NCBI GenBank assembly: GCA_965153355.1
Contig: OZ231126.1
Coordinates: 34,658,001 to 34,722,000, forward strand
From: Flaccisagitta enflata
Lineage: Eukaryota
Length of the DNA stretch: 64,000 nucleotides
Direction of reading: 5' to 3'
The position numbers and the translations under genes are program-made. The number at the start of each line of letters is the position of its first letter. Position 1 is the first letter of the stretch. The notes beneath the pieces are model-generated. The model searched no databases. It saw nothing but the letters and a program-made list of their open reading frames with translations, and was not told where the DNA came from. Shown in pieces: positions 730 to 27,900 of the stretch.

Positions 730-805
730 AAGCGTCCGTGCTTAGGGACAGCACAAAACTATCCCATTATATTCTCAAAGGCGCATATGGTTTAATCTCA
801 TTTTC

Positions 806-1011
806 AAACCAGTAACAATTGATTGTGGTTGAGTAATTATAAACTTTGCAATTGTACAGCCGAAATGGTTAAAAATTGGTGGCTTATCTTCTCAGGTCAG
901 AAGGTTTAACTAATTTGAACCCCTCGTTCAGATATGAGTAGAGCCTCATTGATTTTGATTTTATACTTTTTATGTTTTGAATTGCATTGATTCATTGCTG
1001 TCATGGTTTAT
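806..1011 (+). repeat. 206-bp intra-viral repeat, copy 1 (inverted copy at 11697-11902; partial tandem copy at 1117-1272)
   Basis: Manual alignment with the reverse complement of 11697-11902 shows 2 mismatches. Confidence 0.95.
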
Positions 1012-1116
1012 TTCTCATCATTTTCTATTCACACGTTACTCAATTCAAAAGAATAAAAGATGAGTTAAAAGAAATTTTGACAGGACCTCTACATTACTTT
1101 ACTCAGTTTGTTCATC

Positions 1117-1272
1117 TGGCTTATATTCTCAGGTCAGAAGGTTTAACTAATTTGAACTCCTCGTTCAGACATGAGTAGAGCCTCATTGATTTGAATTGTT
1201 TTGAATTGCATCGATTCATTGCTGTCATGGTTTATTTCTCATCATTTTCTATTCACACGTTACTCAATTCAA
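1117..1272 (+). repeat. Partial tandem copy of the 880-1047 segment
   Basis: TGGCTTATATTCTCAGGTCAGAAGG...GTTACTCAATTCAA matches 880-1047 with a short deletion. Confidence 0.9.
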
Positions 1273-1444
1273 TCGTCGCCATTTTTCTCGACACCATTTC
1301 TTTAATCACATTTTTAATGTTCTATCATCACAATTAACATGTTAATGAGGGCATTGTTTATATTTACTCCTCAAAGCGAGATCCAATCTAAATGCATCGT
1401 CGTGCCTTTCACCTAATGAAACAATAAATAGCGTTGATCAATCA

Positions 1445-1450
1445 TTTATT
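1445..1450 (-). terminator. Putative poly(A) signal of the pPolB transcript
   Basis: AATAAA on the minus strand ~36 nt after the pPolB stop. Confidence 0.5.
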
Positions 1451-1485
1451 TTTAATCACATAATAAATAAATCATCCATATTCAA

Positions 1486-5405: not shown

Positions 5406-5779
5406 TTTCGTGTCAAGCTCATAGGCATTTCATCATAATCAATCTGAAATAAACAACATCAAAATCTATAACATGACATTGAGTAACCAATGCATCACCA
5501 ATGACCAATTTTAATGAGATTTCATATGCAGTCTATTTATACAATTCAGAATAACGAGCAAAATCTATGCAAATCAGTCACTTATTCGTTGATCATGCCA
5601 CAACGCTCCACCGTTGCACCAAAGTCAATTTATTTGTCCAAGGTCACGGGAGTCATGAATGTCACGATGTAGAAATTGTCACTTCTTTATATATGTGATT
5701 CGAATGCGCGATTCGCCTTACGCTTAAGAAAGGCTCTCTCGTCTTCCGTCAGACTCTCCAACCTGGAACACATGTAATT

Positions 5780-6058
5780 TTAATCACATTTCTTCTTCTG
5801 TTGCACTTGCGACACCACTAACCCATCGGATATGACGCACCCGTGACTCGAAATGGGCCTCGGTTTGGGCATAGAGTAGCGATGACGCCGTTTTCTCCGT
5901 CCACCTCTCATCCTCTTCTTTCCATGTCTCCTCCTCCTCCTCCTTCTCTTTCTCCCTTTCTTCCGCCGCCTTCTTCCTCGCTTCCTTACTCCACGCAACT
6001 GTTTCTTGAGACAGGAAACGTATCGACCTTTCGCGTCGCGCTTGACCTTCACCATCAT
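5780..6058 (-). CDS. Arg/Lys-rich protamine-like virion core protein
   Basis: 92 aa with RKRGRRRRKKGRKRRRRRRRHGKKRMRGGRRKRR; lies directly downstream of the MCP. Confidence 0.7.
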   Translation of the reverse strand: MMVKVKRDAKGRYVSCLKKQLRGVRKRGRRRRKKGRKRRRRRRRHGKKRMRGGRRKRRHRYSMPKPRPISSHGCVISDGLVVSQVQQKKKCD

Positions 6059-6154
6059 TAATGATTCACTGCCAAATTAGAAAAAAATGCAACTACACAT
6101 AAACCAACTCAAATCATCAATTTTTATCCAGTAGCAATCAAATTGTACAAATGG

Positions 6155-9340
<3,186 letters not shown>

Positions 9341-9472
9341 CTTTGTTGTATTGTCACAACCTCCACCTTGTCGCCAATCAGATCTTGCCTCTTTTTTTTT
9401 TCCTTACTGCAATATCAAATAACCACGACATTTAATCATGTCAAAGTGTCCATTTCAATGAAAAAAAAAGAA

Positions 9473-10072
9473 TCATTTCACATTAACACTGTAGAGCGAA
9501 TCGTTGAACGAATATTCCTTTGACATCAATTTTTTTTTCAGTAGCAAGCCTAATTTCTTCTGAAAATAACGCGAATTTTCCTGATTATACTCAGAGCAAA
9601 TAAATCGGGTGATGTAACTGCGACTCACTCCATATTTCATTCCAGATGACATGGCCGCATCCAACATCTTCTCGAATTCGGCAGAAGTAACCACATTTCG
9701 CCCGTCATTCCCAGGCTGGATCGTCATCCCGTTCTGCACCTCGATTACGTCTTTAACACGGGACTTGATTTTTTCCACATCAACGCAGACCATCCGCAGC
9801 TGCCCCTCCAAGTACGCAACTCTCTCCTCCATGGTCAAAGTGAGCAGTTGCTCATATCCCATGCTCTCAACCTCTGCACCTCGCACCCCGACGATGCCAT
9901 CAGTACATTCTTCATCCACAGCCGCGGCGCACATGAAATCGTCGTTGTCAATCGCCAAAGTTCCACATTCCAGTGGCGCGTCAGCTTGCGCATCGTCTTC
10001 TGCGCAACCGAAACCATCCTCTCCCAAATTCTTAACTTTTAATCCATCCAACACGTCATTCGAATCCGCCAT
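9473..10072 (-). CDS. Viral protein with acidic N-terminus, coiled coil and C-terminal linker-histone H1/H5-like winged helix
   Basis: FEKMLDAAMSSGMKYGVSRSYITRFICSEY..FQKKLGLLLKKKL parallels the H15 pattern YSEMI.AAI....RGGSSRQSI.KYI..HY....IKLSIRRL. First ATG is at 10072. Confidence 0.6.
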   Translation of the reverse strand: MADSNDVLDGLKVKNLGEDGFGCAEDDAQADAPLECGTLAIDNDDFMCAAAVDEECTDGIVGVRGAEVESMGYEQLLTLTMEERVAYLEGQLRMVCVDVEKIKSRVKDVIEVQNGMTIQPGNDGRNVVTSAEFEKMLDAAMSSGMKYGVSRSYITRFICSEYNQENSRYFQKKLGLLLKKKLMSKEYSFNDSLYSVNVK

Positions 10073-10340
10073 CTTCACTCCCTTTTCCAACGCCAGTCAA
10101 TTTTTAGGTAACGAGTAGCGTCTATTTCAAATCCAAATGACCAAAATCTTCCAAAATTTTAATAGTAATCCAACAATCCTTTTTTTTTCACAACGTCTAT
10201 TTTTGGCAAACTCAATCTGAGAAAAAGGTATTTACATCATATTACGATCTCAATTTACAACAAATACACATATCAATACAATTTTTTTCCAACACTCATC
10301 ACCAAGGATATACAATTCTTTCGGTATTGCAATGTAAACA

Positions 10341-11033
10341 TTACATAAGCGGTTCAGGCCAGCCCTTCTCATCTCCATCAACCCCTTCACCACTTTCATC
10401 TCCTTCATTCCCATCAACAAACAAAGTCTTTCTCACGTCTTTCCAGGCAATTCTCTCCCGTTGGATGCAAAAATCGCATATATCGACGTCCATGTTCATC
10501 CCAACGGGCACGCAGTAGCAGGGGTTACTCATTCTCCATTCCCTCTCCATGCAAACGTCGCAATAATCCGGAAAGTCGCAGGGGCAGGGGTCACGCGACG
10601 GAGTGTCCTGCAAAACAGCAGTGGCGGTCTTCTCTGCCACCATCTTCATTCGCGCTTCTACCACATCCGGCGTCACGGTTGAATTTCTTGGACTGAACGT
10701 CTCCATCCACGCCTTCTTTGCTTCGCTACTCATCATCGGCGTAACGATCAACGCACTCGTCGCCTCCACGGATGCGTCGCCCACCTTACTGCCTCCTTCG
10801 GCGCCGACGCCAAGTGGAATGGAATGGCATGCCAAATCGGGTAGATCGGGTAAGCCGGCGCCAATGATCATTGTCTCAGTTTGTTCTGATTTTCCATCGT
10901 CGTCTATCACCACTCGCAACACCCACTCCTCCAAACCATCTGCATCCCCAAACCAAGCACCACATGACCCAAGTCCAGCTACACCAACTTTGCAGTTGCA
11001 TTTACAACTACAATTGCATTTATTGGCATCCAT
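10341..11033 (-). CDS. Orphan viral protein with two CxC..CxxC motifs
   Basis: 230-aa ATG ORF co-oriented within the cluster. Confidence 0.6.
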   Translation of the reverse strand: MDANKCNCSCKCNCKVGVAGLGSCGAWFGDADGLEEWVLRVVIDDDGKSEQTETMIIGAGLPDLPDLACHSIPLGVGAEGGSKVGDASVEATSALIVTPMMSSEAKKAWMETFSPRNSTVTPDVVEARMKMVAEKTATAVLQDTPSRDPCPCDFPDYCDVCMEREWRMSNPCYCVPVGMNMDVDICDFCIQRERIAWKDVRKTLFVDGNEGDESGEGVDGDEKGWPEPLM

Positions 11034-11249
11034 TTTGATATGTACTATGCGTCATTCACTGTCAATCCAATGATATCTTTCAATCTGCAAATCAACAAAT
11101 CACAGCCACATTTAGCAACACAATTTTGAAGTAATTAACCATTTTCATCAATTATTAATTGCGACTACAAATCACAAAACAAATACTGATTCTGTATGCA
11201 TATTTGTATGTGAGCGTGGTAGATTGTTCCGTCTCTCCTCCAACTCAAT

Positions 11250-11681
11250 TTATGTACGTGGTACAGCGTTCCATCTCTCCCCCATCCATTTTGCCACGAC
11301 TTCCCTTCTTTCCTCACTAACCTTCGCCAGTCTCTCCTGAAAAATCTTCTCCTCCCTCATCATCCTCCTCTCCTCTCTCTCCTCCTCTTTCCGCTCCTCA
11401 TATGCCTCTCTCGCTCGCCACCTACAACTGCGGACACAAAGTTCACACAAATCGTGTATGTGCCTGATCTTGAAACAGCTACAGTTTTCATAGTTGTATC
11501 GCTTCCTCGGCGGTCTCTGATGATCCCCAAACTTGTCGTCAAGCGCCATCTTCTCCTTACTCCACGCCAGCGATGTCGAATAATCCAAAGTCAACTTTTC
11601 TACTTCATTGGCCAACTGCATACCCTCGTCCATTCCATTGTTTTTCTCTGCATATACACAGTCACAAAGCATTTTCTTCAT
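11250..11681 (-). CDS. Orphan viral protein (CxC..CxxC plus charged helix)
   Basis: Co-oriented ORF. The ATG at 11681 follows a TTTCAG acceptor-like site; an upstream in-frame ATG is at 11705. Confidence 0.55.
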   Translation of the reverse strand: MKKMLCDCVYAEKNNGMDEGMQLANEVEKLTLDYSTSLAWSKEKMALDDKFGDHQRPPRKRYNYENCSCFKIRHIHDLCELCVRSCRWRAREAYEERKEEEREERRMMREEKIFQERLAKVSEERREVVAKWMGERWNAVPRT

Positions 11682-11696
11682 TGAATATCTGAAACC

Positions 11697-11902
11697 ATAA
11701 ACCATGACAGCAATGAATCAATGCAATTCAAAACATAAAAAGTATAAAATCAAAATCAATGAGGCTCTACTCATGTCTGAACGAGGGGTTCAAATTAGTT
11801 AAACCTTCTGACCTGAGAAGATAAGCCACCAATTTTTAACCATTTCGGCTGTACAATTGCAAAGTTTATAATTACTCAACCACAATCAATTGTTACAGGT
11901 TT
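11697..11902 (-). repeat. 206-bp intra-viral repeat, inverted copy
   Basis: Reverse complement of 806-1011. Confidence 0.95.
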
Positions 11903-11918
11903 TCTACCATTCAAGTTA

Positions 11919-13064
11919 TCACGCCTGCAACAAATCTTCGCCACTGACACCAACGTTGTTGTTGTCGACGTTGCCGTTGTCACCATTTTCACCACCAGCA
12001 TCGGCGTTGTCGTTGTTAACGCCACCACCATCGCCACCGACGTTGTTGTCGCTAGGGACCAACAGATTCATCGCCATCTCCCATGTTTCCGCCGACATCG
12101 CCACCCACACCTCATTACCATCGTTAACATATGCCAGCGCCTTCTCCATCAATCTGTTACCAATGTCTTTGTCGCCATTCTCACCACCGGTGTCGACGCC
12201 ATCGACGACGTTGTTGCCATCGTCGCCGCTGGCGCCGTTAATGCCGTCGTCGTCATTCTCGCCACTGACGTCGGCGCCGTTGACATCGTTGTTGCCATCT
12301 TCACCACCGGCGTCGTTGACGCCACCGTCGGCATCCGCGCCACCCACGTCGGCGTCATTCACACCGTCGTCGTTGTCGTCGACATCTTCATCGCCGACGT
12401 AAATGGCGTCGTCATTGTTGTCACTGACATCGCCGACATAGTCGCCATCATCGTCGACATCATCGTCGTTGCCGTTGTCGCTATTGCCTACACCACCAAT
12501 CGCACCACTACCACAGACCTTCACCGACCTCCACTTCTCGAAAAGCCTCTGGCATTTCCGCTTTTCGCGTTGCCAGTCATCCATGTGCGCATGCCACTGC
12601 TGATCAATCCTCCTCCTTTTGAACCTTTCAGGTTCATCGCTCTCGTTCATCACCTGGCCCTCTACTTCAAACTCCGCCGACTTCAACTCCCACTCCTTGT
12701 CAATCCTCCTCTTCCTGCCCGCAACACGGACGCACTCGCTGTAAACCTTCGAACCAACCGCCATCACCCCCTTCACGTACGCCGCCATCTTCGCCAATGA
12801 GTACGACGTCCCCTCGGGCGCCGCAACACCAGATGCATTCGGGTCCTCCAATGACGATAACGGAGCACGCGTCAAGGCAACCGAGTTTTCAGAGTCTTTC
12901 CTCTCATATCTCCACACGGCGCCACCATAATCATCCAATGCGATTTTCGGTGGCTTTCTGCGATCCTCGCCTTCCTTGCCGTCGGCGCCATCCTTCAACG
13001 GTACGCATATCAGCCTGTAATGTTCTAAACAGTTGTTGTTCAGCCCATTTATGAAAGCCTCCAC
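11919..13064 (-). CDS. Orphan viral protein with duplicated KRRID.W motif and D/N/G-rich tail
   Basis: 381-aa ORF with RKRRIDKEW and KRRRIDQQW; TATA-like TATATAAATA upstream at ~13242-13251. Confidence 0.65.
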   Translation of the reverse strand: MEAFINGLNNNCLEHYRLICVPLKDGADGKEGEDRRKPPKIALDDYGGAVWRYERKDSENSVALTRAPLSSLEDPNASGVAAPEGTSYSLAKMAAYVKGVMAVGSKVYSECVRVAGRKRRIDKEWELKSAEFEVEGQVMNESDEPERFKRRRIDQQWHAHMDDWQREKRKCQRLFEKWRSVKVCGSGAIGGVGNSDNGNDDDVDDDGDYVGDVSDNNDDAIYVGDEDVDDNDDGVNDADVGGADADGGVNDAGGEDGNNDVNGADVSGENDDDGINGASGDDGNNVVDGVDTGGENGDKDIGNRLMEKALAYVNDGNEVWVAMSAETWEMAMNLLVPSDNNVGGDGGGVNNDNADAGGENGDNGNVDNNNVGVSGEDLLQA

Positions 13065-13314
13065 TTCGTCGATCCGGGCGGTTCATGACTCTTCCCGGGG
13101 TATTTCCCTCTTGCCCACGCTTCTAGCAGCACACAAAACCAGAAATTTTTTTTGCACATTGACGCGTGCACGTGAGTGGTAGGCAAACCGGCAAACATTT
13201 TCTTGTATTGATGGGTAAACCTGTAAACATGATATATACAATATTTATATACATTCACAAATGACGTGACTTACAAATTCAATCAATGCATCATCGACTC
13301 TTTACATCAAATTA

Positions 13315-13752
13315 CTAATCAGAGTCACTTGTATCACCACTTTCACTTTCACTGCTCGAGTCAGAAGACGAATCACTCGACGACGACTCTGAAGTACTAC
13401 TTGAGTCCTCGGACATCTCCTCTTTTTCCTTCTTCTTTACAGACTTCGATTTTTTGCTCTTTTTTTTCCGCTTACTACCAGTTTTTATTCCAGGTTTCTT
13501 TACCACGCTGCCCTTCTCGGTCTTTTTTTTCACAGCTTCCTTTCTTCCCCTTTTCTTCGGATTAGTCTTTTTTGCTCCACCATTTGATTTTTTTTTCGTG
13601 TCTTCTTTTCCATTTTTTTCGATAGTTTTCATATCCTCCTTGTATGTTTCCAAAGCGTCACTAACTTCAGTTGAAGTCGACATAACTGCAGCATTGCTAC
13701 TTCCACGCATTTTAGCAGCAATTGCTGATAGGGCATCACTGCTTATCGCCAT
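13315..13752 (-). CDS. Lys-rich / Ser-acidic low-complexity viral protein
   Basis: 145 aa; starts 5 nt after the minor capsid stop. Confidence 0.6.
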   Translation of the reverse strand: MAISSDALSAIAAKMRGSSNAAVMSTSTEVSDALETYKEDMKTIEKNGKEDTKKKSNGGAKKTNPKKRGRKEAVKKKTEKGSVVKKPGIKTGSKRKKKSKKSKSVKKKEKEEMSEDSSSTSESSSSDSSSDSSSESESGDTSDSD

Positions 13753-13756
13753 CTAA

Positions 13757-14629
13757 TCAAATTTTTTGAACAATATTCAATACAAATCTCAATGATTGGG
13801 TTTTCAAACAACAGCCAAAATCAAATGCTTTGAAATCATTATTTAACAAAGAAAAACTTATGTTTCGCATACCCACAGCATCGAAGCTTTTGTACGGCGA
13901 TGTAATTTTCTTCTCCAACAAATCATAACTACACACAACGCCATACTTGCCACCATTAAAATACATAGTGGGTTCTACACATCGATCGATTACCAAATGA
14001 CACATCCTTTCATCTTCTCTGAAAAATTGTACGGGTACACTGCAATTTAAGGGCTTACATATCTTCATAGATTCAACATCACACGTGGGCGCCAAAACTT
14101 TGTCTTCATTTTTTCTATTTTTAGCATCAGTTACTTCATCTTTAAAGCCCATGAACTCAAAAAGATTCATTGTAGCAAAAAATGCAAAATATTCATCCAA
14201 AATTAACTCGAACATGCCATCTACATAACGCACCGAAAATATGTCCATTACTTCATCCCTTTCCGCTTTATTGTCATCAAATGATTCGTCATCCTTTTTA
14301 ACACACTTACTCTTATACACAAAGTCATTATAAACGGCACATCTTAGTTGCTGAGCAAATTGGGTTAGGCTACTAAACACAAAAGTGTACTCCTTAACAG
14401 ATTCCCTGCATATATCAGCGGTATCAATCCCATAATGCATCGCAAAAGTAATACTCTTTTCAATAGGTGGTAATGTAAAATCTGTAACGCTCACATACAA
14501 TCCTTTTTTGCCACCAGAGTTAATGTGTAATCCAGGAAGATTCATGTGAAAACTGCTTGTTTCTTTCAGGAAACATCCATTAGAGCGTGTGTCGATTTGG
14601 ACCTCCGTCACGCTCTCCATCGCGGCCAT
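13757..14629 (-). CDS. mCP: Minor capsid (penton, single jelly-roll) protein
   Basis: N-terminal VQIDTRSN..TSSFHMNLP..LYVSVTDFTLP and C-terminal YKSF..RNISFSLLNNDFKAFDF..LRFVLNI fit the Maverick penton pattern. First ATG is at 14629. Confidence 0.7.
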   Translation of the reverse strand: MAAMESVTEVQIDTRSNGCFLKETSSFHMNLPGLHINSGGKKGLYVSVTDFTLPPIEKSITFAMHYGIDTADICRESVKEYTFVFSSLTQFAQQLRCAVYNDFVYKSKCVKKDDESFDDNKAERDEVMDIFSVRYVDGMFELILDEYFAFFATMNLFEFMGFKDEVTDAKNRKNEDKVLAPTCDVESMKICKPLNCSVPVQFFREDERMCHLVIDRCVEPTMYFNGGKYGVVCSYDLLEKKITSPYKSFDAVGMRNISFSLLNNDFKAFDFGCCLKTQSLRFVLNIVQKI

Positions 14630-15119
14630 GGCATCGATCGTCGATTCCAGCAACCACGACACGATCAACTTCTTCACTCCTCGCACCCAAATTGAATGCG
14701 ATCTCAGGACCACTGCGTCGATTCAGGCTAATTCTGACCTTCCCCGACACGCACCTACAGACGACTGCAATGGTCAAAACAGCCGCGGCGACGAACACCA
14801 GAAAATTCACGCATACGCCAACAGCCTTCAACAATCCGGGATCCGGCCCAAACTTCACAGTTGGGATGTCTCCAATCGCCCCTTCCTCCTCCCACCAAAA
14901 ACCACCACTAACGTCACCACCGCCGCGAACGTCGTCACTACCTTCTAGGTTAGTAACTGTCCAATTCACAACACTCTCCACAGTGACTTTGTCAACGTCG
15001 CCTCTTCCCTTGTCCACGCCTCCCACAGTCCCGTTTGGTACGTCCAAAGCAACCCAATAAGCGTCCCGAAGAGACGTTCCATTCACCGGCATAGTTTTTG
15101 ATTTTTTTTTGGCAAACAC
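14580..15119 (-). CDS. Single-pass membrane protein of unknown function
   Basis: Hydrophobic segment AVGVCVNFLVFVAAAVLTIAVVC; lies between integrase and penton. Start codon uncertain. Confidence 0.55.
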   Translation of the reverse strand: MFAKKKSKTMPVNGTSLRDAYWVALDVPNGTVGGVDKGRGDVDKVTVESVVNWTVTNLEGSDDVRGGGDVSGGFWWEEEGAIGDIPTVKFGPDPGLLKAVGVCVNFLVFVAAAVLTIAVVCRCVSGKVRISLNRRSGPEIAFNLGARSEEVDRVVVAGIDDRCHGRDGERDGGPNRHTL

Positions 15120-15148
15120 CTAAATTTTGTATCACAATATATACAGCA

Positions 15149-16324
15149 TCAATTTAAAGCATTTTTAGTGCAGTAAAATGTTTCATCACAATTTTGAGGC
15201 TTCAAATATACATAAACATCATCACGCTTAACAACCTCAGAACTATAAAGTACATTCAGATATCTCGCCTTGGGTAAACTCAATTCGGCATAATATTTCA
15301 ATTCCGCACAACTAAATCTCGAATCACTCACTGGTGCCAAATTAAAAACTGACGATAACAAATGATAATTCACAAATTCAATATTTACAATGTCTGTAAC
15401 ACAATAGTAATTAGTCGAAATTGACCCATACGATTCCTTTGCAAACATGCCATCTTTGGGTGCAAATTTTCTCACTTTCACTATGGCAAACAATGGTAAT
15501 TTAGTCGGCCTTATCATATTGTTCCTTGAAGACTTCCTCCTTCGAAACCGATTTCCAGCCTTTATGTTCCTTATGTGCCGTGGGTCTTGATTCAATGCTT
15601 CCTTGCTTGACATGAAATTTAAACTCGACCTTGGCTTCGAGTTGACAGCATTTTCAATTTCAAGCAATTTTTGTGCAAATGGCACATCATTCCCAATGTC
15701 ACGCATGTAAACTTCTAGATACGATCTGAATAAGCGTATACTTTGTTCGCAAACCACGTTTCCTTTACCCTTCCGTTCAAGCCTTCTTTGCCTGATGCCA
15801 TAAAATTTCAGGCCCTTGCTTTTAAAATACTGAGTTATTGTGTTGCTAAGCCATTCCACGCCTAAATCTCCCCAAATCTTCCTCGCACGTTCTGGCAGAT
15901 AAGGACTTCTCCGAAATATATCTTCAAAGGATTTTATCACCGAGTTACTTTTTGTGCTATAGCAACAAGAAAAATAACTATACAGAGAAAGGCCACATAC
16001 CATAACAAGGACGTATCGCGGACTTGAGCTTCCATAACTCCGGTTTTTGCTCAAATGACACAAATCCACATTGAGCCATTCAATGTAGTTGGGCGGAAGT
16101 ATCCACGGTCGTGACAATTCACTGGCTTTCCGTTTACTGTCATTTTTTATCAATATATCATTGCTTTTTTGCTCCGCAAGGTACTCCTTTATCTCACTCT
16201 GCCCCACGTCGAATCCCTTCTTCTTTAAATATTTTCCAATCTGCCTCGCATTCTTAGACAGAAACAACGGGGAACCTTTACCCCTAATGGCCTTTTCCAA
16301 TATTTCTCTTGACTCTACTCTCAT
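15149..16324 (-). CDS. INT: Retroviral-like (rve) DDE integrase of Maverick type
   Basis: WLNVDLCHL (D), KIWGDLGVEW (D), VVCEQSIRLFRSYL (E), plus RYVLVMVC..S.Y and VNSKPRSSL. Confidence 0.9.
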   Translation of the reverse strand: MRVESREILEKAIRGKGSPLFLSKNARQIGKYLKKKGFDVGQSEIKEYLAEQKSNDILIKNDSKRKASELSRPWILPPNYIEWLNVDLCHLSKNRSYGSSSPRYVLVMVCGLSLYSYFSCCYSTKSNSVIKSFEDIFRRSPYLPERARKIWGDLGVEWLSNTITQYFKSKGLKFYGIRQRRLERKGKGNVVCEQSIRLFRSYLEVYMRDIGNDVPFAQKLLEIENAVNSKPRSSLNFMSSKEALNQDPRHIRNIKAGNRFRRRKSSRNNMIRPTKLPLFAIVKVRKFAPKDGMFAKESYGSISTNYYCVTDIVNIEFVNYHLLSSVFNLAPVSDSRFSCAELKYYAELSLPKARYLNVLYSSEVVKRDDVYVYLKPQNCDETFYCTKNALN

Positions 16325-16347
16325 TTCTCATAATTAAATGTCGCGCT

Positions 16348-17358
16348 CTACTCTCTCCGTTTTCTCTTCCCCCTCCCCAACTCCTCCTCCTCACCCACAA
16401 AGTCAACTGTCACCTTCTTCCTCTTCGACCTTGACGTGGGATTAGCCTCCGTATCCCACTCGTGTAAAGCCTCTTCTTCCGCTTGTGGGGTTTCCAATGT
16501 TACCTTTCTCTTCCTTGGATTACTACCACTCACGGCATCTCGCCATGTCGAAGAAATCTGTTCGCGTAATTTCGGTGCTGTGCGAATTTTGTTAAGAGAT
16601 CCACTAGAGAGACCATACGATTTTTTAACTGGGTTTAATATACTTTCTTCAGCGTCATCGTCGTCGTCCTGCTCCAACCCTCTTTTCGTTCCACGCCCAC
16701 CGATTCCCGCTGATTCACCAACTCTTTCGTCACTCGCCTGCTGGGCTCCTTCCGACACAGTCTCAGTTGCAGGCGATGTATTTTCAACACTAGACAATCC
16801 TTTACTCTTTATCTCTTCAATTTTTAAAAGGGATTCGCGGATCCCCAACGCGTCGCCGTGTCTCAACAACTCAAGGGGAATCTTAATCTTGATTAAGCTG
16901 TCCAAAAACAGCGCAATTGCCAAGGGAATTTGAGATGGACTTGCCGATATGCAATATTGCACCAAATTTTTTATATTAGAAAATTTGATGTTTTCACCAT
17001 TCACAATAATCTCCAGTGTATCCGGATCAAAAGTTATGTAGTCACTTCTATCAATCTCATTCAGCAAACTCTCATTCAGCAAACTCATTGCCAACTGCTT
17101 CTCTTTTACGCCACTTATTTCATTTACAATTCGATGTATTGCCGCTTGAATTGGACTCTGAATTGGCACCGAGTTAGACTCCACTGGTGCCTCGGTAGTA
17201 TTGCTCGGCAGTTCCTCGCCAGATGGCAACACTTTCAATCTTTTTCCGTCTATTAGATTTCTGATGCTATCCAACTTCTCTTCACAGGTAACGTCTGCTT
17301 TGTTTATAATTTTTAACACATGTGGGGTTTTTAAATAATTGGTCTGATGTTCACTCAT
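16348..17358 (-). CDS. Maverick-like conserved accessory protein
   Basis: YITFDPDTLEIIVNGENIKFSNIKNLV..FLDSLIKIKIPLELL resembles, from memory, the conserved protein next to the ATPase and integrase in Mavericks; basic NLS-like C-terminus. Confidence 0.65.
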   Translation of the reverse strand: MSEHQTNYLKTPHVLKIINKADVTCEEKLDSIRNLIDGKRLKVLPSGEELPSNTTEAPVESNSVPIQSPIQAAIHRIVNEISGVKEKQLAMSLLNESLLNEIDRSDYITFDPDTLEIIVNGENIKFSNIKNLVQYCISASPSQIPLAIALFLDSLIKIKIPLELLRHGDALGIRESLLKIEEIKSKGLSSVENTSPATETVSEGAQQASDERVGESAGIGGRGTKRGLEQDDDDDAEESILNPVKKSYGLSSGSLNKIRTAPKLREQISSTWRDAVSGSNPRKRKVTLETPQAEEEALHEWDTEANPTSRSKRKKVTVDFVGEEEELGRGKRKRRE

Positions 17359-17680
17359 GGTGTAGGCAGTTTTTCAGAAAATCGGCAATGATGTAGGAAT
17401 TAAACAGTTTCCTTTCATTCTTCTTCAATTTCAAAAACTTTTTTTTTCTTTTTTTCAACGAAATGCGACTGTTTTTCAAAAAAGACAGAAGCTTCTTACT
17501 TCTTTTCATCTTCTTTCTCGTTTTTGAAGAAAAGCACTTGTCAAATCTCCGCTTGGATGCATTTTTAACTATTTCAACTACGCATTCAAACACACTAGTT
17601 TTGAGTTTTTTTTCAAAAAGAGCGTCTTCCACACACACATTCACTAAATTCTTCAGTTTTTGGGGTGATCTACAAGCCAT
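17351..17680 (-). CDS. Small basic Maverick-like accessory protein
   Basis: FECVVEIVKN..KKMKRSKKLLSFLKNSRISLKKRKKKFL resembles, from memory, the small basic ORF that follows the Maverick ATPase. Confidence 0.65.
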   Translation of the reverse strand: MACRSPQKLKNLVNVCVEDALFEKKLKTSVFECVVEIVKNASKRRFDKCFSSKTRKKMKRSKKLLSFLKNSRISLKKRKKKFLKLKKNERKLFNSYIIADFLKNCLHHE

Positions 17681-17691
17681 CCGTATGCCAT

Positions 17692-18786
17692 CTAATCCTC
17701 CTCCTCACTACTTTCATGGTAACTTGTCATCGGACCGTCCTCGGCAAGTAAAACCCGTCCCCAGAGCGTCGGTTTTGTGCACATAGGACTGACACAAGCT
17801 ATCACGTAATTAAAATTTTTTCCAAGTACTTCCCGCTTATAGACATCAAAGAGGGTCTGTCCCGCTTTTAAATTGATTTCGTAATTATTCATATGACGCT
17901 TAGCCGCGCGACGCTTAGCCGCGCGGGCGTCGTGCGAACTTTTAAAAAACACAAGATGACTTGAGTTCATGAGTATCACATTTAACTTCAACGATTTCAA
18001 AAAGATGTCGTAGCTGTGAAGGCAGATTATTGATACACACCCCACGTGATGAGTCCATATGCCAGCCAGGGAAATCAAATCCTTTCTTATCTTTTCATCA
18101 ATATTCGCATCAAAAAAGTAGTCATCTATCACTATAATTGTCGAATCTTGCACAGGTTTGCAAAAATCTAAAAAATTTCCATCTGGAAATTTTTTCGAAA
18201 ACACGGCTTCCACGCCACGCTCCGTTGCCAAATGCGTCCTCAGTCTTTCTATACTTTCACAATTTTCCTTGTAGAAATATATTATTTTCTTTATTTTCTG
18301 TCGGAAGTGATATTCATGCTCAATTAACAAGTTTGTAATCCAGGTTGTCTTGCCTTTAATTAACTTGGTCACAAAAAATAAACATTTCTAATTTTAAGTA
18401 ATTGGTAGCCCCTAATCAAAGCCCATTCAAACAAAAAATTGCCCAAAATCCTAGGCAGCTCACTCAAACAAATCTTAAGTAATCAGTAACCCCTAATCAA
18501 AGCCCAATCCAATGAAAAATGGTCAAATATTACAGGCAGCTCAAATCTTCGGTAATCGGTAACCCGTAATCAAGACCCACTGAGCTAAAAAAATGCCCCA
18601 AAAATCCTAGGCATCTTACTCAAACAATTTTTATATAATCAGTAGTCCCTACTTCTACATAAATTATTAGCTAATATTTTTTTGTGACCAACGACCAGAG
18701 GACGACTGTCCAAATACGCAAACAAAGTTGCCCGGAAAAAATTGATGACTTTTTGCAGAATAAATTTCACTTTTTTTTCCAGCCAT
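17692..18786 (-). CDS. A32/FtsK-like DNA packaging ATPase, 2 exons
   Basis: Exon 1 18786-18696 (MAGKK..FVCVFGQSSS G) plus exon 2 18353-17692 (KTTW..) rebuilds Walker A GQSSSGKT. Walker B is IIVIDDY; THH.G and MNSSHLVFFKS motifs also present. Confidence 0.9.
18365..18691. mobile_element. TIR-bounded element filling the ATPase intron
   Basis: TTGGTCACAAAAAA..TTTTTTGTGACCAA; three internal ~80-bp degenerate repeats (..CCCTAATCAAAGCCCA..). Confidence 0.7.
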
Positions 18787-18934
18787 GATTGTGATCAATT
18801 TTCAAAATGCAACTGCATATATATTAATTTCTTTTTCTTTTGCTCATCTTGCTCTTCCTTATCCATATATCTTTCTGTTTAAATAAATTTTAATTGCTCT
18901 TCCCCATTTCCTCTTCCTCCTTTCCTCCCTTTAC

Positions 18935-21900
18935 CGAGATGAGGTGCTTTAGGGCATGGTGCTCGCCGTGAGCTGTCCGAAGAGTTTCTTCCGTCGAGTT
19001 AAAATGTGTCTGAAATCAAACGTCACGGCGCCGAAAAATAACGCCCCGCATTCATGTTGAATGAATGAAGCATTTGATGAAATGAGCACAATTGCGATTC
19101 GAAAAGGATTGGCGAATAGCGAATTTAACAAGACCGACGAGAATGAAGATTTTCACGTGATGCTACATCAGCCATGCCAAACGTTTTTCTGTCGTTTGCT
19201 CGCATTCTTACCTTGTAGAGTTCTTTTTCCTTTTGAAGACCTCGGGCTAAGCCTTGCGCCTTATCTAGTTCTTCTTGTAGCTCTTTTAAGGCCGTTTTAG
19301 CAGCTGAAAGCTCGCGGTCGGTCTCATCCTTGTGACGCTGCAGCGATGTAACTTCCTGTTTGCCTCGCAATGACTCTGTCTCTCTATCAACGGCGGCATC
19401 CTTAAGGGCTTCAATCTTCTCTTGTTTCGTTTGCACGGTCTTCTCCAAATCGGCAACCTGACAGTGTCAAAGATTATCAAGCGACGATGGTACACGCTAC
19501 ACAGACCTGGGCAGATGCTAACTATACTACCCTACATGAGGAGTGGCGAGTGGGGCGTGGGGAGTGGGGAGTGGCAAGTGCCTTTTTTTGGTTTTCTCTT
19601 TTCAAACTCCTGAATCCTTTTCAATAAATGCCAAAAACAGTGTAAATGAAAGTATTGGGCGTCTCCTATAGGGAACGCGACGAGTGGGGAGTGGGAAAAA
19701 CAAAAACACGCAAAAATACAGAAACCTGAGTGGGGAGTGGGGAGTGGAGAGTGGGGAGTGGCAAGTGATTTTTTTTGGTTTTCTCTTTCCCAACTCCTGA
19801 ATCCTTTTCAATAAACGCCAAAAACAGTGTAAATGAAAGTATCGCGTGTCTCCTATAGGGAACGCGACGAGTGGCGAGTGGGAAAAACAAAAACACTCAA
19901 AAATTAGGGACCGGGTTGAGTTTAGGGTTAGGGACCGGGTTGAGTTTAGGGTTAGGGACCGGGTTGAGTTTAGGGACAGGGACCGGGTTGAGTTTAGGGA
20001 CAGGGACCGGGTTGAGTTTAGGGACAGGGACTGGGTTGAGTTTAGGGTTAGGGACTGGGTTGAGTTTAGGGTTAGGGACCGGGTTGAGTTTAGGGTTAAG
20101 AACCACATTTCAAAAAAAGTTGGCTTTAAAGTTGAAAAACTTTGCCAAACGCTGGTGTGATATTTATTAACTTTGCCGAAGGCAAAGCAAAGTTTTCAAT
20201 TTTGCTGACTTAGCCTTAGAAATACATGCTATTTCCAAGTGGGAAAATTTTGTTTTGCCTTCGGCAAAAGCGAAAAAACTTTGCTTTAGTCAAAAGTGAA
20301 AAACCTTGCCTTCAGCAAAGTTTTTCAACTTGATAAGTAAGGTAAATACTAACATCTCAACTCTAAAATTCAACCCAGTTAGAGTTGGTTAGGATTGAAT
20401 AAGGGTATGGTAAGAGTTGAGTGTTTAAGGTTTGGGTTGTTTGAATGTATGTTGCTAATCAAGTTGAAAAACTTTGCCGCAAATGAATAAATTTTTTCAA
20501 CTTTGCCGAAGGCAAAGCCAAGTCTTTCCACATCACATGTCATTTCTACTACCTTGGGGATGATTTTAACAAAACTGCTGGTTTTATTTTTGTTTTGTAT
20601 AGCCTGTAGGTGCAAGAAATGGAATCTACCAGCTTTTAAATCATCCTAAGGCCGGATTTTGAGAAAAAACACTTTTTTCCCATCCTGAGGTACAGGTCAT
20701 TGAATTTTCCCATGTTTATCTTGTTTTGCTCATATCTTTTGAACGAAAAGAGCTAGAAATGCCAGATTGGTCCCATTTTAAAGATCTGCTCAAGATCTTT
20801 CCAACCGTCACCAATTTTTTGTAAATCCGTTGAAAAATGCCCGAGATATAAGCACTCAAACATAGGGTATGTTATGAGGAATATTGACTATCTTCCTGGT
20901 CATTGATTTCTTGTCATAATTCTACTTGTTTTGCTCATAACTTTTGAACGAATAAGGCTAGAAATGCCAGATTGGTCTCATTTTAAAGATTTTTTCAAGA
21001 TCTTTTTAACCGTCACCAATTTTTTGTAAATCTAATAAAAAATGCTTGAGTTATGACTTGTCAAACATAGGTAATGTCATGGGAATCATGGAGGATTTTC
21101 CCTACTATGCGAATTAAAAAAAAAGACGCACCTTTTTATTTGATGATAAAACTGACTTGAGAATTGTTTAAAAAATTTATTAAAGAAAGTGATTTTGAAG
21201 ATTTTAAAGTTATCTTTCATTCTAGACCAATCCCAGATCTGTATCTTTAACGGTTTAGGAGCTAGAGCTCTCTAAAGTGAGACACCATTTTGGTGAATTG
21301 CATCTTTTTCAAAGGAACTGCAAAAACAAATTTGGCAACATTTTCATCAAACTAATGCCATTTCTAAATGAAAAAAGATAGAGATACCAGATTGGCGCCA
21401 AATGAAAGAGTTTTTCAAGGGCTTCAAAATGATCTATGATTTTAATTAGTTTCTATGATTGTCAATGGCGCAATCAACCATTCAAAAGTGCGTCTTTTTT
21501 TTAAATTTGTATAGTACTCTTATTCTCGCTTTGTCTATTGGTTGGTCCATCAGTCAGTGGGTTTGTTGGTTGTTCAGTTGGTCCATCAGTTTGTAACACT
21601 TAGCTTTTTTGAAGTTTACAGGCATTTTTTGCATTACTGCGACTGCCAAAATGTTTCCTCACCTGTAGAACACAGGAGGAATTCCCATATCTCAAACCTG
21701 AAATCATTCCTCTCAGTCCTCAAATCAGTGCTTTCAGGCTTTGATTGGCCCTTCAAATCCTCAAAACAACTCCCTCAAACCTCAAATTAGCCCTCACAGG
21801 CTTCAAATTAGCAGGGGTGTATATAGTTGCACGACCTTTGATTTCTCTCCCCCCCTGGTCCTTTGATTTTCTTCCCCGCGGGGTCGAAATACATTTGTTT

Positions 21901-24900
21901 TTCTTCCCCATATACCCCCTATATAGTAATATTTTTGTTTAAATAGTATTTAATAGTGTTGTGGTGACTTAGTATTACATTTTAGTACTGCCAAAAGTGT
22001 AATATCTTTTATATTTTCGTGTTTTTGCTTTTTCTACCCTTTGATTTTCTTCCCCATTTCCAAATCCTTTGATTTTATTCCCCCCCTTGCTGGGGGGGGG
22101 GGAAATATGCAACTATATACAGGCCTGCAAATTAGTCCTAGGCTTCATGTCAGCCCTCTGTCTATCCACTCATCCTCCCCTCTTAGGTCTGAACTCTACT
22201 CTCTCCAGTCTCAAAATGACCCCCTCAGCCCCCCAATCAGCCCTGTCATGCCTCAAATCAGCCCTCTCAATCCACATAACACATGCGCCACATTTAGGCG
22301 GAAAATGTGGGAACATAGTTACCATAGCAAAAACTACTCTAGTACCATGAAATTTGAACTGGAGGTAGCATTTTAGCAGAATTTTTATTAAGTATCATGA
22401 TTCAATCATAATTCAATTATTAAATGGGGTATTTCAGCAAAGATGTTGAAATTTCAATATCAAAATGTTGCTGATTTTTCCCGCACTGAAATCAAATGAA
22501 ATTGATAATCTTTAGAATACTATTACAGGACCCTGAGTAACAGGGTGTGCAAAAAAATCCGCACTCATCATCATGTCTACTAGAAAGACACCTAGAATTG
22601 GAAAAACTCTCTCTAATTAAAGTTCAAAGTTGAAAATTAGGTTATTTTTATGGTTAAGATAGGAAAAAATGTAAGTATAGTGGACAGCTGAATATATTCT
22701 TAGACCAACAATGACATAACCAGAATGTTGCAAACATTCTTTTTCTGTGAATAAATGTTTATCTTTCATCTTAATTCAATTGATGAAATCTTTTTTGTGC
22801 ACTGAAACCCCTCCTTCTTGGCCCATCCATCTCTCGCTGATGTACTTCATTTTAAACAATCCATCTAAAAACCAATGAGGTAGCTAAAATCTTTTTTTAG
22901 AAAATACTGCTCTGCCAATAAAATCATGTCAAAATCTTAATTTTTGTTTCTTTTTAGGTACATATCATGGCCATGTATAGAAATTGTATCAGCTGTTCTT
23001 GATTTCTTCTTTTGTTATGACCAACTGAGATACTCTGGTTCAAATTTTAGCTCATAACTCCTATAAGAAGCATGGATTTAAAGCAATATACTGAGTGCGA
23101 ATTTTTTTGCACACCCTGTTAGAAGAAAGTGACCAAAATTGACTAACAATCATGCACATGAGCATTTCTTAGTAATTGGATTGAATATTGTACAGTTTTT
23201 GATGATAAAACTGACTTAAGAATTGTTTTTTACCTTGAAGCTGGGATTTAGGCCTCAAAATATAGATCTGGGCCTTGAGGCTAGGATTTGGGCCTCAATG
23301 ATATGATTTAGGTTTTAAGAATTTGGGTTTTAGGCTAGGATTTTAGCCTGAAGATAAGGATTTGGGCATAGAGACTTGGATGTGGACCTTGAGGCTGGGG
23401 TTTTGGCCACTAGGCTGGAATATGGGCCTTAAGGCTGGGATTTGGGCCTCTATGCTGGGATGTCCTCCAGGTTGGGGTTTTGGCCTTGAGGCTGAGGGTG
23501 GGTACAAACTAGTCATCCAAGGATCGCACATGGTCAGCGGTACCCGATGCCCTGCTGGGAGTGATCCAGTAAATAAGTGGAGTGAGAGCAGGGCAGCGGC
23601 CCCAAAGGGCCGATGTCCTGTAGAACACAGGGGGGAATTTTGTCACGTCCATCCTTCCATCTGTCCTAAGGGGGCTCTAGATGGCTGATTTAGGCCACTG
23701 AAGGCATATTTGAGGGCTGGAGGGTATAATTAAGGTTTGGAGGGCTGGTTTCATGCTTGGAGGGCTGATTGAAGGTCTGGAGGGCAGATTTGAGGTCTGA
23801 AGGACAGTTTTGAGGCATGGGGGGCTGATTTGAAGCCAAGAGGGCTGATTTGAGGCCTCGAGGACTAAATTGAGGCCTGGGAGGGCTAATTTGAGGCCTT
23901 GATGGGGACGGAAGGACGGACAAAAGGATGGACGGACGTAACAAAATTCCCCCTGGTGTTCTACAGGACATCGGCCCTTTGGGGCCGCTGCCCAAAAAGG
24001 AGGAAGAGAAGAAGGACAAGTTTCTGCATATGTGAAAGCATAGGTCATCAGCCCTTTTGGGGTGCTGCCCAAAAGGGAAGATTTGAGACATGGGAGGGGT
24101 TCTAAGATCTGCGAGTACTGATTTGTGGCTTGAAAGGGCTGATTGGAGGGATTCGGGGCCATTTCGAGACTTTAGAGGGTGGAGTTCAGGCCTGAGAGGG
24201 GAGGATGAATGGATAGACAGGGGGCTGACATGAAATCTAGGACTAATTTGAAGCCTGAGATGGCTAATTTGAAGTTTGAGGGACTTGTTTTGAAGGGCCA
24301 ATCAAAGCCTGAAAGGACTGATTTGAGGACTGAGAGGGATGATTTTGGGTTTGAGATATGGGAATTCCTCCTGTGTTCTACAGGTGAGTAAACATTTTGG
24401 CAGTGGCAGTGATGCAAAAAATGCCTGTAAACTTCAAAAAAGCTAAGTGTTACAAACTGATGGACCAACTGAACCACCAATCAACCCACTGACTGATGGA
24501 CAAAACCAATAGACAAAGCGAGAAGAAGAGTTGGGAAAATCCTCCAAGATTCCCATGACATTACCTATGTTCAACAAGTCATAACTCAAGCATTTTTTAT
24601 CGGATATACAAAAAATTGGTGACGGTTAGAAAGATCTTGAAAAAATCTTTAAAATGAGACCAATCTAGCATTTCTAGCTTTATTCGTTCAAAAGTTATGA
24701 GCAAAACAAGTAGAATTATGACAAAAAATCAATGACCAGAAAAATAGTCAATATTCCTCATGATATACCCTATGTTTGAGTGCTTATATCTCAGGCATTT
24801 TTTAATGGATTTACAAAAAATTGGTGACGGTTGGAAAGATCTTGAGCAGATCTTTAAAATGGGACCAATCTGGCATTTCTAGCTTTTTTTGTTCAAAAGA

Positions 24901-27900
24901 TATGAGCAAAACAAGATAAACATGGGAAAATTCAATGACCTGTACCTCAGGATGGTAAAAAAGTGTTTTTTCTCAAAATCCGGCCCTAGGATGATTTAAA
25001 AGCTGGTGGATTCCATTTCTTGCACCTACAGGCTATACAAAACAGTAATAAAACCAGCAGTTTTGTTAAAATCATCCCCAAGGTAGTAGAAATGACATGT
25101 GACATGAAAACCGCAGGTATTTTCTAAGCAAAGTTAGCAAAATTGATAACTATGTTTTGCCTTCGGCAAAGTTGCAAAAATGTCACATCAAAGGAAATAA
25201 AAAACTTTGCCTTCCGCAAAGTTTTTTAACTTTTCAAAATTGAACTTGGCCCAGTCCCAAACCCTTAACTCCAGACTGCGTGTTTTGCAAGATCCCAGCC
25301 AGAAACAAAAAGTGATTTGGCAAATTGACAACCTTGTTTTATCAAGGACATTTACTCCGAAATTCACTCACTCGCCGTTTCTAAGGTAAGCAAAATGATT
25401 GAAATATAATGCAAAAGCTCTGATTTGTATTCTCTAGTTTTAACTCAACCCGGTCCCTAACCCTAAACTCAACCCAGTCGCTAACCCTAAACTCAACCCA
25501 GTCGCTAACCCTAAACTCAACCCAGTTGCTAACCCCAAACTCAACCCAGTCCCTAACCCTACCTAAACTCAACCCGGTCCCTAACCCTAAACTCAACCCG
25601 GTCCTTATCTCTAAACTCAACCCGTCCCTATCCTAAACTCAACCCGTTCCCTAAACTCAAACCTGTCCCTAAAAACTCAGTCCCTAACCTAAACTCAACC
25701 CGGTCCTAACCCTAACTCAACCCGTCTCTAACCCTATACCCGGTCCCTAACCCTATACTCAACCGGTCTAACCTAAACAACCTGTCCTAAAACTTCAACC
25801 CGGTCCCTATCCTTAAACTCAACCTGCTCCCTATCCCTAAACTCAACCCGGTCCCTAACCCTAAACTCAACCCGGTCCCTAACCTTAAACTCAACCCGGT
25901 TTCTGTATTTGAGTGTTTTTGTTTTTCCCACTACCCACTCATCGCGTTCCCTATAGGAGACGCGCGATACTTTCATTTACACAGTTTTTGGCATTTATTG
26001 ATAAAGATTCAGGAGTTGGGAAAGAGAAAACCAAAAAAAATCACTTGCCACTCCCCACTCGCCACTCGCCACTCGCCACTCGGGTTTCTGTATTTTTGAG
26101 TGTTTGGTTTTCCCACTCCCCACTTGTTGCGTTCCCTATAGGAGATGCGCGATACTTTCATTTACACTGTTTTTGGCATTTATTGAAAAGCATTCAGAGT
26201 TGGAAAAGAGAACACCAAAAAAAATTACTTGCCACTCCCCACTCCCTAACCCTAAACTCAACCCGGTCCCTAACCCTAAACTCAACCCGGTCCCTAATCC
26301 TAAACTCAACCCGGTCCCTAACCCTAAACTCAACCCGGTCCCTAACCCTAAACTCAACCCGGTCCCTAACCCTAAACTCAACCCGGTCTCTAACCCTAAA
26401 CTCAACCCGGTCCCTAACCCTAAACTCAACCTGGTCCCTAACCCTAAACTAAACTCAGCTCGGTCCCTAACCCTAAACTAAACTCAACCGGTCCTAACCC
26501 TAAACTAAACTCAACCCGGTCCTTATCCTAAACTCAACCCGGTCCTATCTCTAAACTCAATTCCCTATCCTTAAACTCAACCTGTCCATCCTAACTCAAC
26601 CGGTCCTCAATCAACCAGTCCCTAACCTAAACTCAACGGTCTTAACCTAAACTCAACCGGTCCTTAACCCTATACTCAACCTGTCCTAACCCTAACTCAA
26701 CCTGGTCCTAACCCTAAACTCAACCTGTCCCTATCTAAACTCAACCTGGCCCTTATCCCCAAACTCAACCCGGTCCCTAACCCTAAACTCAACCCGGTCC
26801 CTAACCTTAAACTCAACCCGGTTTCTGTATTTGAGTGTTTTTGTTTTTCCCACTCCCCACTCATCGCGTTCCCTATAGGAGACGCGCGATACTTTCATTT
26901 ACACAGTTTTTGGCATTTATTGATAAAGATTCAGGAGTTGGGAAAGAGAAAACCAAAAAAAATCACTCGCCACTCGCCACTCGCCACTCGCCACTCGCCA
27001 CTCGCCACTCGCCACTCGCCACTCAGGTTTCTGTATTTTTGAGTGTTTGGTTTTCCCACTCCCCACTTGTTGCGTTCCCTATAGGAGATGCGCGATACTT
27101 TCATTTACACTGTTTTTGGCATTTATTGAAAAGCATTCAGAGTTGGAAAAGAGAACACCAAAAAAAATTACTTGCCACTCCCCACTCGCCACGCCCCACG
27201 CCATTGAGGGTAGTATAGTTAACACCTGCCCAGACCTGCCCTGGTGTAACCGTCCGCGCATCAAGACTTAGTGCACAGAATCATTCCTAATGAAAACGGT
27301 AATGCTGTTGTTTAGACGACGTGTACCCAGGGACTGACAGAGGCCTATACAACCTATACAAAATAACAGGGGCCGGGGCCAGAGAAGGCCTGAAGATACC
27401 CTAAATTTAATACAGAGAAGAAAGAGGAAAAGGGAGGAAAAAAAAAGAAAGAATACAAATAGAAAGATGAATAAGAATAAGTCCTGAGCCCTACATTCAC
27501 TTATTCTGATGATTGGTTACCATATTTTGTTCTTATTTGCAACAGATCAAAGAGCCTTGTTTATCACTTGTGTGGATTTCACTCTTTATAATGACTGAAT
27601 GCGCGTCAATTGCCAAGAAAGTAAAACTTATTTGGGAAGACGTGCCTTTTACACCAGAAATAGACTTACCTTGATGGACTGCTCCTCTTGCGATTCTTTT
27701 GCGCGATGAAGTAGAGCAGCCAACTCTTCGAGCTCTTTTTCTCTTGCCTCCAACAATCTCTCCGCGTCGTTGACCTAAGAGCGCAAACGACATGACCAAC
27801 CGTTACGCTTCACATTATTTTTTTACTACATAAAGTAAGCATTCTAGAAATAGGCGGCATTGGATGGCCACCAGGACTTAATCAAAATACTGCCTAGTTG

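Follow-up and report, generated by a model that had tools for sequence, protein, structure and literature searches.

Bursts of intron gain are at present best explained by introns that transposons have made, and virus-like elements with double-stranded DNA have been proposed as vehicles for such introns. Introners of this kind have been reported inside Maverick/Polinton-like (eupolintoviral) proviruses of dinoflagellates (Gozashti and Corbett-Detig, 2025; PMC12166617), where they are described as members of curated multi-copy host families, mostly younger than the integration, with only ~25% lying in coding regions. Here we describe an interrupted packaging ATPase gene of a Maverick/Polinton-like element in a 64,000-nucleotide stretch of the Flaccisagitta enflata assembly (contig OZ231126.1, positions 34,658,001 to 34,722,000), referred to below in its entirety as the window. 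The reading that we favour, at slightly better than even confidence, is that the interruption is an old, vertically inherited phase-1 intron in which the ends of a unit resembling a MITE (a miniature inverted-repeat transposable element) persist as a stem clamping the splice sites.

Comparable arrangements are described in other lineages. The MITE-derived introns of Fritillaria borealis and the introner elements of Micromonas and Aureococcus have terminal inverted repeats (TIRs) near the intron ends and a MITE-like size, and share the idea that the splicing machinery neutralises an insertion into an exon; they occur in thousands of copies at species-specific positions, with 3-5-nt target-site duplications (TSDs) supplying a splice site, and those of Fritillaria have non-GT-AG ends (PMC11282704). 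In the nonconventional and intermediate introns of euglenids, for which a MITE origin is suspected, the ends pair at +4 to +6 with -8 to -6, the stem being 3 bp long with a CAG/CTG consensus and removal being non-spliceosomal and circular; the intermediate subtype is GT-AG (PMC4770533; PMC11282704). The symmetrical introns and stwintrons of the Hypoxylaceae are canonical and seamless, with terminal inverted repeats of 45-55 nt able to form double-stranded intron RNA; a single fungal genome holds scores of sister copies, and the donor is that of a nested intron (PMC8469720). Finally, vertebrate Mavericks are elements of the same kind with the same packaging ATPase module, and intact ones are reported with intronless open reading frames (ORFs) (Barreat and Katzourakis, 2021; PMC8097293).

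The ATPase gene lies on the minus strand of the window. Exon 1 (18696-18786) runs from an ATG at 18786 through GQSSSG to the opening G of the Gly codon in Walker A, i.e., phase 1, and reads MAGKKSEIYSAKSHQFFPGNFVCVFGQSSSG. Exon 2 (17695-18353, stop at 17692-17694) begins GC AAG ACA ACC TGG at 18353, thereby supplying the last two bases of the Gly codon and reading G-K-T-T-W, and continues through Walker B (IIVIDD, 18121-18138) to an acidic tail. Between the exons lies a 342-nt GT..AG interval (18354-18695), a putative spliceosomal intron with donor GTCGTT and acceptor TTAATTAAAG, which starts with GTCG, ends with AAAG and splits the Gly codon of GQSSSG/KT. When the interval is left in, the frame hits a stop 9 codons past the Gly; taking out exactly 342 nt restores the P-loop GQSSSGKT, in agreement with the uninterrupted relative P0032 (GQSRSGKST). 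This interval, and the codon it splits, had been proposed in an earlier reading of the same DNA (the original prediction), and every coordinate of it proved right.

Nearly the whole interval is taken up by a single repeat-bounded unit. Its 5' arm (18678-18691; TTGGTCACAAAAAA in transcript sense, intron +5 to +18) and 3' arm (18365-18378; TTTTTTGTGACCAA in transcript sense, intron -25 to -12) are separated by 299 nt and pair without a mismatch as an inverted repeat of 14 bp (100% complementary). Outside the arms, the donor side retains 4 nt and the acceptor side 11 nt, such that an arm-bounded, repeat-filled, non-coding unit of MITE size, 327 bp long, fills all but 15 nt of the interval. The tandem repeat core (18390-18651) comprises three 73-nt units (18390-18616) plus a partial further unit; the three units are 63-79% alike at spacings of 81 and 73, and there is a further repeat pair at 18433-18495 / 18589-18651. 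The longest ORF inside the interval has 37 aa and its GC content is 34%. The unit thus has the traits of a MITE, namely 14-bp TIRs, a length below 800 bp, an AT-rich composition and no coding capacity, and the predicted 327-nt TIR-bounded element with internal repeats was confirmed, with tandem units of ~73-81 nt.

The ATPase is recognisable because uninterrupted distant relatives give domain and fold matches; the window's own large ORFs gave no meaningful match to Pfam, PHROGs or PDB sequences. A profile of 19 exon 2 relatives retrieved 54 proteins at E<=1e-3 among 1.84 billion representatives. Three of these, the uninterrupted distant members P0056, P0066 and P0069, pass Pfam Pox_A32 at 27.9, 23.4 and 28.6 bits, respectively (cut-off 22.8). 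When an AlphaFold model of the uninterrupted relative P0032 (pLDDT 93.4) was compared by Foldseek, the genome-packaging ATPase STIV B204 ranked first (E 2.4e-7, TM 0.54/0.60), followed by RecA/Rad51-type folds. The gene is an A32/B204-type packaging ATPase; the original prediction had called it an ATPase. The copy in the window also carries a 15-nt tandem duplication at 17900-17930, adding 5 residues (..RAAKR..), which is absent in 19/19 aligned relatives and 'left out' in one RNA-library and one metagenome contig.

To place the interruption among related genes, we used a close clade of 89 sequences from the protein collection (the 19 aligned relatives and 70 cluster members), 37 of whose ORFs reach GKT. 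In none of these 37 was exon 1 joined in front of GKT. The 3' arm was read as FFVT or FFCDH, two reading frames of one DNA string that is the window's 3' arm, in 17/17 sister ORFs long enough, and was found in every subclade down to ~64% protein identity. A further 15 of the 37 start M-T-K, fitting a GTG start within the arm, and five start too late for the arm to be scored. The residue preceding the Gly always fits a codon ending in A, i.e., ..AG/G. On the donor side, five sister ORFs that read through from exon 1 (P0020-P0024) are 76-88% identical; the 5' arm is kept in the three that reach it (P0020, P0022, P0024), in two frames, while P0021 and P0023 stop before it.

The sequences around the arms behave differently. 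Residues between arm and acceptor vary among sisters (KLIK, KFIK, KLTKQ, IQFK, MQFK, HAVWI, HVVWI, HA), and the sequence upstream of the 3' arm also differs; in P0022, which reads G-W-S-Q-K, the arm stands directly after the Gly codon, and in P0132 there are ~5 nt on the acceptor side of the arm. Conservation of the arms therefore exceeds that of their flanks, which vary where the arms do not. Three contigs gave a view of the nucleotides themselves. A marine metagenome contig (X3 record 13) covers 18218-18763, including the whole intron, with 9 differences and one gap. A DNA contig of depth 455 (X1 record 3) keeps exon 1, the donor and the 5' arm and then diverges, with a 3-nt insertion, AAT, behind 18689 at the outer edge of the 5' arm. 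In a sister with ~85% identity in exon 2 (X8 record 18), 18360-18378 is exact and is followed by 255 nt of unlike sequence. Alignment-based locus searches for sister DNA returned no relatives among 96 IMG/VR pattern stretches and none among 261 in JGI metagenomes. Traces of the tandem units are found in translated sister introns (P0092 RGYQLL.., P0118 ..NYRLPNI.., P0007 ..YWAIF..). Since both arms and tandem-unit traces occur in sisters, the whole unit is ancestral to the clade. Judged from these comparisons, the interruption is not recent, being common to the whole sister clade and evidently inherited.

The arms are unlikely to have arisen as a chance feature of composition. None of 20,000 dinucleotide-preserving shuffles of the 342-nt interval matched the 14 nt observed: perfect complements joining its first 30 nt to its last 30 reached 11 nt at most. 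Allowing for up to one mismatch, the arm 14-mer occurs in the 64 kb only at these two sites, against 0.24 expected, and two or more occurrences were seen in 2/100 shuffles. The stem core had a computed pairing probability of ~1.0 in the pre-mRNA, with -16.9 kcal/mol for the isolated duplex, and the whole-intron fold had z = -3.0.

Both exons show signs of selection. Hand counts placed 7 of the 8 listed variant places of exon 1, and 15 of the 25 of exon 2, at third codon positions, i.e., 22/33 for both exons, with 31 further differences falling outside the listing. Exon 2 is open and of full length in many diverged sisters, some of them represented by as many as 42 contigs. Motifs including Walker B are conserved, and GT, AG and phase are kept in every readable sister. 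These patterns indicate that both exons are under purifying selection. The interval is almost certainly removed from the RNA, presumably by splicing, because the two selected frames join only when exactly this interval goes. An Rfam search of 17500-19500, at E<=1, gave only a chance snoRNA match (E 0.35) in exon 2; a group I/II self-splicing intron, a snoRNA, a tRNA-like sequence or another known RNA was rejected, there being no Rfam match in the intron. Excision at the DNA level, as for the eliminated sequences of ciliates, was considered and set aside, as there are no TA borders and nothing suggests a ciliate host.

The splice sites are unusual for this element. Donor GTCGTT and acceptor AAAG are weak in comparison with those of its other candidate introns, which, identified by eye and unverified, have GTAAGT or GTGAGT donors and ..YAG acceptors and are much longer than 16 nt. 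The original prediction had seen in the ATPase intron a clue to how the virus gained introns. This was not borne out: the other candidates have ordinary splice sites, and no further end-clamping repeat was listed in positions 1-19500 of the window; one such intron therefore does not explain the introns of the element. Separately, a putative intron of another gene (7560-8120, minus strand) contains ~8 tandem units (..AAAACTGGGTTGTGTGACACAC..) and, beyond them, a long stretch of (GA)n, and tandem-repeat-filled introns are therefore not unique to the ATPase.

We propose the following mechanism for this lineage of marine Maverick/Polinton-like elements, in which the intron interrupts the Gly codon of GK[ST] in Walker A. 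A conserved inverted repeat of 12-14 bp starts 1-4 nt after the donor (up to ~10 in one sister) and ends 5-13 nt before the acceptor, while the ~300-nt tandem-unit interior and the short spacers drift freely. In the pre-mRNA the arms would pair (-17 kcal/mol) and loop out the variable interior, thereby holding the weak donor GTCGTT and the weak acceptor AAAG side by side, and this clamping role would be the reason why the arms are kept. We infer such a clamp because the arms are kept while their neighbours drift, pair strongly and bracket two weak splice sites. Arms and repeat core would be what is left of a MITE-like insertion, present in the lineage ever since; this insertion may either have made the intron or have entered one that already stood at this codon and subsequently shrank around it.

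Several observations weigh against this proposal. The joint 18353/18696 was seen in none of 4 runs, and a polyA RNA run with the same organism label (X18) had 0 reads on the stretch and is thus uninformative on expression. Of the RNA-library contigs only X8 record 18 extends to the acceptor side, where it continues unspliced into the intron, and it could be pre-mRNA or DNA carry-over; RNA and DNA origins are likewise both possible for the near-identical X8 contigs over 17486-17999. A joined Walker A motif was found in 0/89 clade sequences, though the protein collection includes assemblies of RNA runs, and most of the sister evidence consists of gene-caller ORFs that read into the intron. Neither a branch site nor a pyrimidine tract is obvious in the segment that separates the stem from the AG, a stem so near the donor (+5) could hinder U1/U6 binding, and, the arms being invariant in every sister seen, there is no compensatory change to back the pairing. 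As regards the transposon origin, the flanks GTCG and GTTAATTAAAG show no direct repeat of 2-10 nt that would mark a TSD, even with the arm boundary shifted by 0-2 nt; blastn found no second copy of the 327-nt unit in the 64-kb window; and an exact-pattern scan of JGI metagenome contigs for the repeat unit gave 0 matches. The arm is also not visible in the distant interrupted lineages described below, in which only 6-13 residues upstream of GKS are readable. Read depth adds little: the intron interior has depth 0 in X1 and one contig in X3, with exon 1 depths of 3777 and 44, respectively, and gaps there prove nothing.

The element does contain a canonical MITE of near-equal size, ~9 kb from the ATPase intron. 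This 330-bp unit (8946-9275, within the region 8938-9283) has 21-nt TIRs starting CAGGG (CAGGGGTG.. / ..CATGCCTG) with 2 mismatches, an inner inverted pair of G/C runs, and a perfect 8-bp TSD, GGTAAATC, on both sides, a TSD length that would fit a hAT-like element. As its TSD is so clear, the same signature would be expected to show at the ATPase intron if that insertion were fresh.

The position itself has a deeper history than the close clade. The P-loop is uninterrupted in the distant relatives P0031, P0032, P0033 and P0043 and in the entire outgroup; P0032 and P0160, a member of its cluster seen on 79 contigs, read ..LLFGQSRSGKSTW... In P0028, P0030, P0035 and P0037/P0148, non-P-loop residues stand immediately before GKS, which indicates an interruption at the same codon. 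The spacing of M-T-x-x-I-K in P0030 equals that of the window's arm and could hide one. Intron-less ATPase copies, which the original prediction had proposed to look for in sisters, were therefore found in distant relatives and in none of the 37 close ones; likewise, an intron without the arms was not seen among the close-clade sequences long enough to show them, and the distant lineages interrupted at the same codon are those in which no arm is visible.

We built a careful maximum-likelihood tree of 47 rows, each at least 185 aa long, from which the five exon-1 peptides and P0052, being repetitive, were excluded; its bootstrap was not fully settled. All interrupted rows fell inside one 29-row clade (100/100), and the 18-row sister clade (100/100) held only uninterrupted rows and rows that do not reach the P-loop. 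Nested among the interrupted lineages was a 7-row subclade (98/96) of uninterrupted and unscorable rows. Given this topology, one old gain followed by one loss is preferred as the shortest history, the alternative being at least three gains at one codon. The tree thus mildly favours an intron older than the visible arms.

A second line of evidence on the origin comes from the immediate surroundings of the arms. In the window, AAGTTAAT stands immediately 3' of the 3' arm, and in P0024 the residues K-L-M immediately 5' of the 5' arm are compatible with these eight letters; the insertion in X1 record 3 agrees. Back-translation and one contig hence give a hint of a possible direct repeat hugging the arms in sisters. 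If real, such a repeat would imply insertion into sequence that was already non-coding, and only ~16 nt of non-coding sequence would then remain outside the arms. About 16 nt is too short for a free-standing intron, and a pre-existing 16-nt intron was set aside for this reason. The tree leans to an older intron and the tiny remainder to birth by insertion. Each account needs an extra step: either the transposon brought or recruited a few terminal bases that included GT and AG, or an older intron shrank around the stem.

The strongest alternative to an inherited, clamped intron of either origin is an ancestral birth of the introner type, in which a TIR element entered an intact Walker A codon, supplied both GT and AG, and has been inherited since. 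We regard this as a tentative possibility. It would explain why the window's arms leave a remainder of only 15 nt (4 + 11), into which no ordinary intron fits, and why the arm follows the Gly codon directly in P0022 and leaves ~5 nt in P0132. Uninterrupted relatives exist (P0032/P0160), introners are reported to populate Maverick-like proviruses (PMC12166617), and in Hypoxylaceae fungi proliferating introns that bear terminal inverted repeats are described as seamless, with no duplication at their flanks (PMC8469720). The exon junctions, however, carry no duplication and allow only a 1-nt slide, and the splice sites lie outside the repeat. Nor did the window, the metagenome scan or the depth of the DNA runs reveal a second copy; the same codon is interrupted in the distant P0028, P0035 and P0037/P0148, which have no visible arm, and the tree prefers one old gain; the possible direct repeat around the arms, being non-exonic, again speaks for entry into non-coding sequence. 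The position of the intron is neither recent nor lineage-specific, recency and lineage specificity being what an introner would be expected to show. Of the original proposal that a transposon created the intron, the TIR-bounded unit of MITE size stands, while an introner event is not supported by an interruption that is common to the clade, lacks a TSD and has no other copy found. Creation of the intron by a transposon is possible but unproven.

A bolder version, which we consider doubtful, goes beyond the favoured reading of an inherited intron with a retained stem. Here the Maverick lineage would have domesticated a MITE as an obligatory self-clamping intron, the stem would let the spliceosome or a euglenid-like activity remove it, and the element could seed intron-forming elements in new genomes. 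If this were true, a virus-like element would carry a splice-ready transposon from host to host.

It is unlikely that no transposon was involved at all, i.e., that an ordinary old intron gained its terminal stem by a small inverted duplication and its interior by tandem duplication. Such a history would be consistent with arms that are conserved while everything else drifts, with the tandem repeats that also fill another putative intron of the element (~7700-8120), with the lack of a TSD and of a second copy, and with an intron position that looks older than the visible arms. A perfect 14-bp TIR around a 300-nt AT-rich repeat core is, however, how MITEs normally look, a genuine one of near-equal size lies 9 kb away in the same element, and a remainder of only 4 and 11 nt outside the stem is unexpected for an ordinary intron. 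That the interval is no intron, an insertion having broken the P-loop and left dead copies, is very improbable. Such a reading would fit the failure to observe spliced RNA, the retention of the interval in a sister's RNA-library contig, the weakness of both splice sites and the split of this copy's polymerase over two frames; the third-position bias in both exons, the open, full-length exon 2 of many diverged sisters, and the conserved motifs, splice dinucleotides and phase argue against it.

When set against the described systems, the ATPase intron resembles the introners of dinoflagellate proviruses in being a short, non-autonomous element of TIR type, inside a Maverick-like element known from marine samples, in a coding region that needs splicing (PMC12166617). 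In contrast to them, the unit here has no known family, is older than the divergence of the clade and has conserved ends. Like the introns of Fritillaria, Micromonas and Aureococcus, it has TIRs near its ends and a MITE-like size; unlike these, it is GT-AG, lacks a TSD, is known from one locus and holds a conserved position. With the euglenid introns it shares paired ends around a variable interior, the pairing here being of +5 to +18 with -25 to -12; nothing shows a euglenid removal mechanism or a euglenid host. It is canonical and seamless like the Hypoxylaceae introns, with terminal repeats that could likewise form double-stranded intron RNA, but its arms are of 14 bp and one locus is known. 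Whereas intact vertebrate Mavericks are reported with intronless ORFs, the lineage described here has a conserved interruption in a core gene. We found no description in the literature of a conserved interruption in the P-loop of a Maverick ATPase, which is not proof that there is none.

Other features of the window bear on the identity of the element. A gene resembling a protein-primed B-family polymerase (1486-5429, minus strand) consists of two abutting ORFs. For the 788-aa ORF at 1486-3852, 27 of the 30 named matches were DNA_pol_B_2 clusters (score 0.94), by language-model features and with no Pfam match. The ORFs at 3843-5429 and 1486-3852 meet out of frame where a run of A precedes ATGA (3843-3852); the junction may represent a slip site, an overlap of stop and start within ATGA, or a frameshift of the present copy. 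An integrase-like ORF (15149-16327, minus strand) resembles rve clusters by language-model features only (score 0.97, 201 shared features), with no Pfam or PDB sequence match. The likenesses to polymerase and rve are leads, not tests. As these look-alikes accompany a packaging ATPase, Maverick/Polinton-like element is a fair label.

The element may be composite or rearranged. An inverted pair at 806-1011 / 11697-11902 (206 bp, 99% identity, plus 1117-1235 versus 11697-11828 at 86%) encloses the polymerase half and not the integrase/ATPase half. Adjoining the element is a palindromic structure (19507-21811 and 24243-27233) with inverted segments of 300-616 bp at 85-95% identity, within which tandem repeats of a 24-nt type occur at ~19900-20100 and 25400-26700. 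Long inverted repeats of hairpin or MITE-like form abound in the flanking host DNA (62052-62849, 56201-56733, 28128-28444), examples having 263-nt arms of 100% identity around a 272-nt spacer and 219-nt arms of 92% identity. An ORF fragment at 30038-30514 (minus strand) has a near-threshold match to the SKICH domain (22.9 bits, cut-off 23.4), a family linked to animals, which gives no more than a faint pointer to an animal host.

Taken together, the ATPase intron is a well-delimited case and not proof of the introner mechanism. The locus shows a stage different from that of published cases, namely a TIR-bounded unit in a core morphogenesis gene, long inherited, with its ends kept and the rest decaying. 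Should splicing be driven by the stem, the locus would offer a clear case, outside euglenids, in which the ends of a transposon serve anew as an intron-folding device, and some Mavericks would depend on nuclear splicing for their packaging motor.

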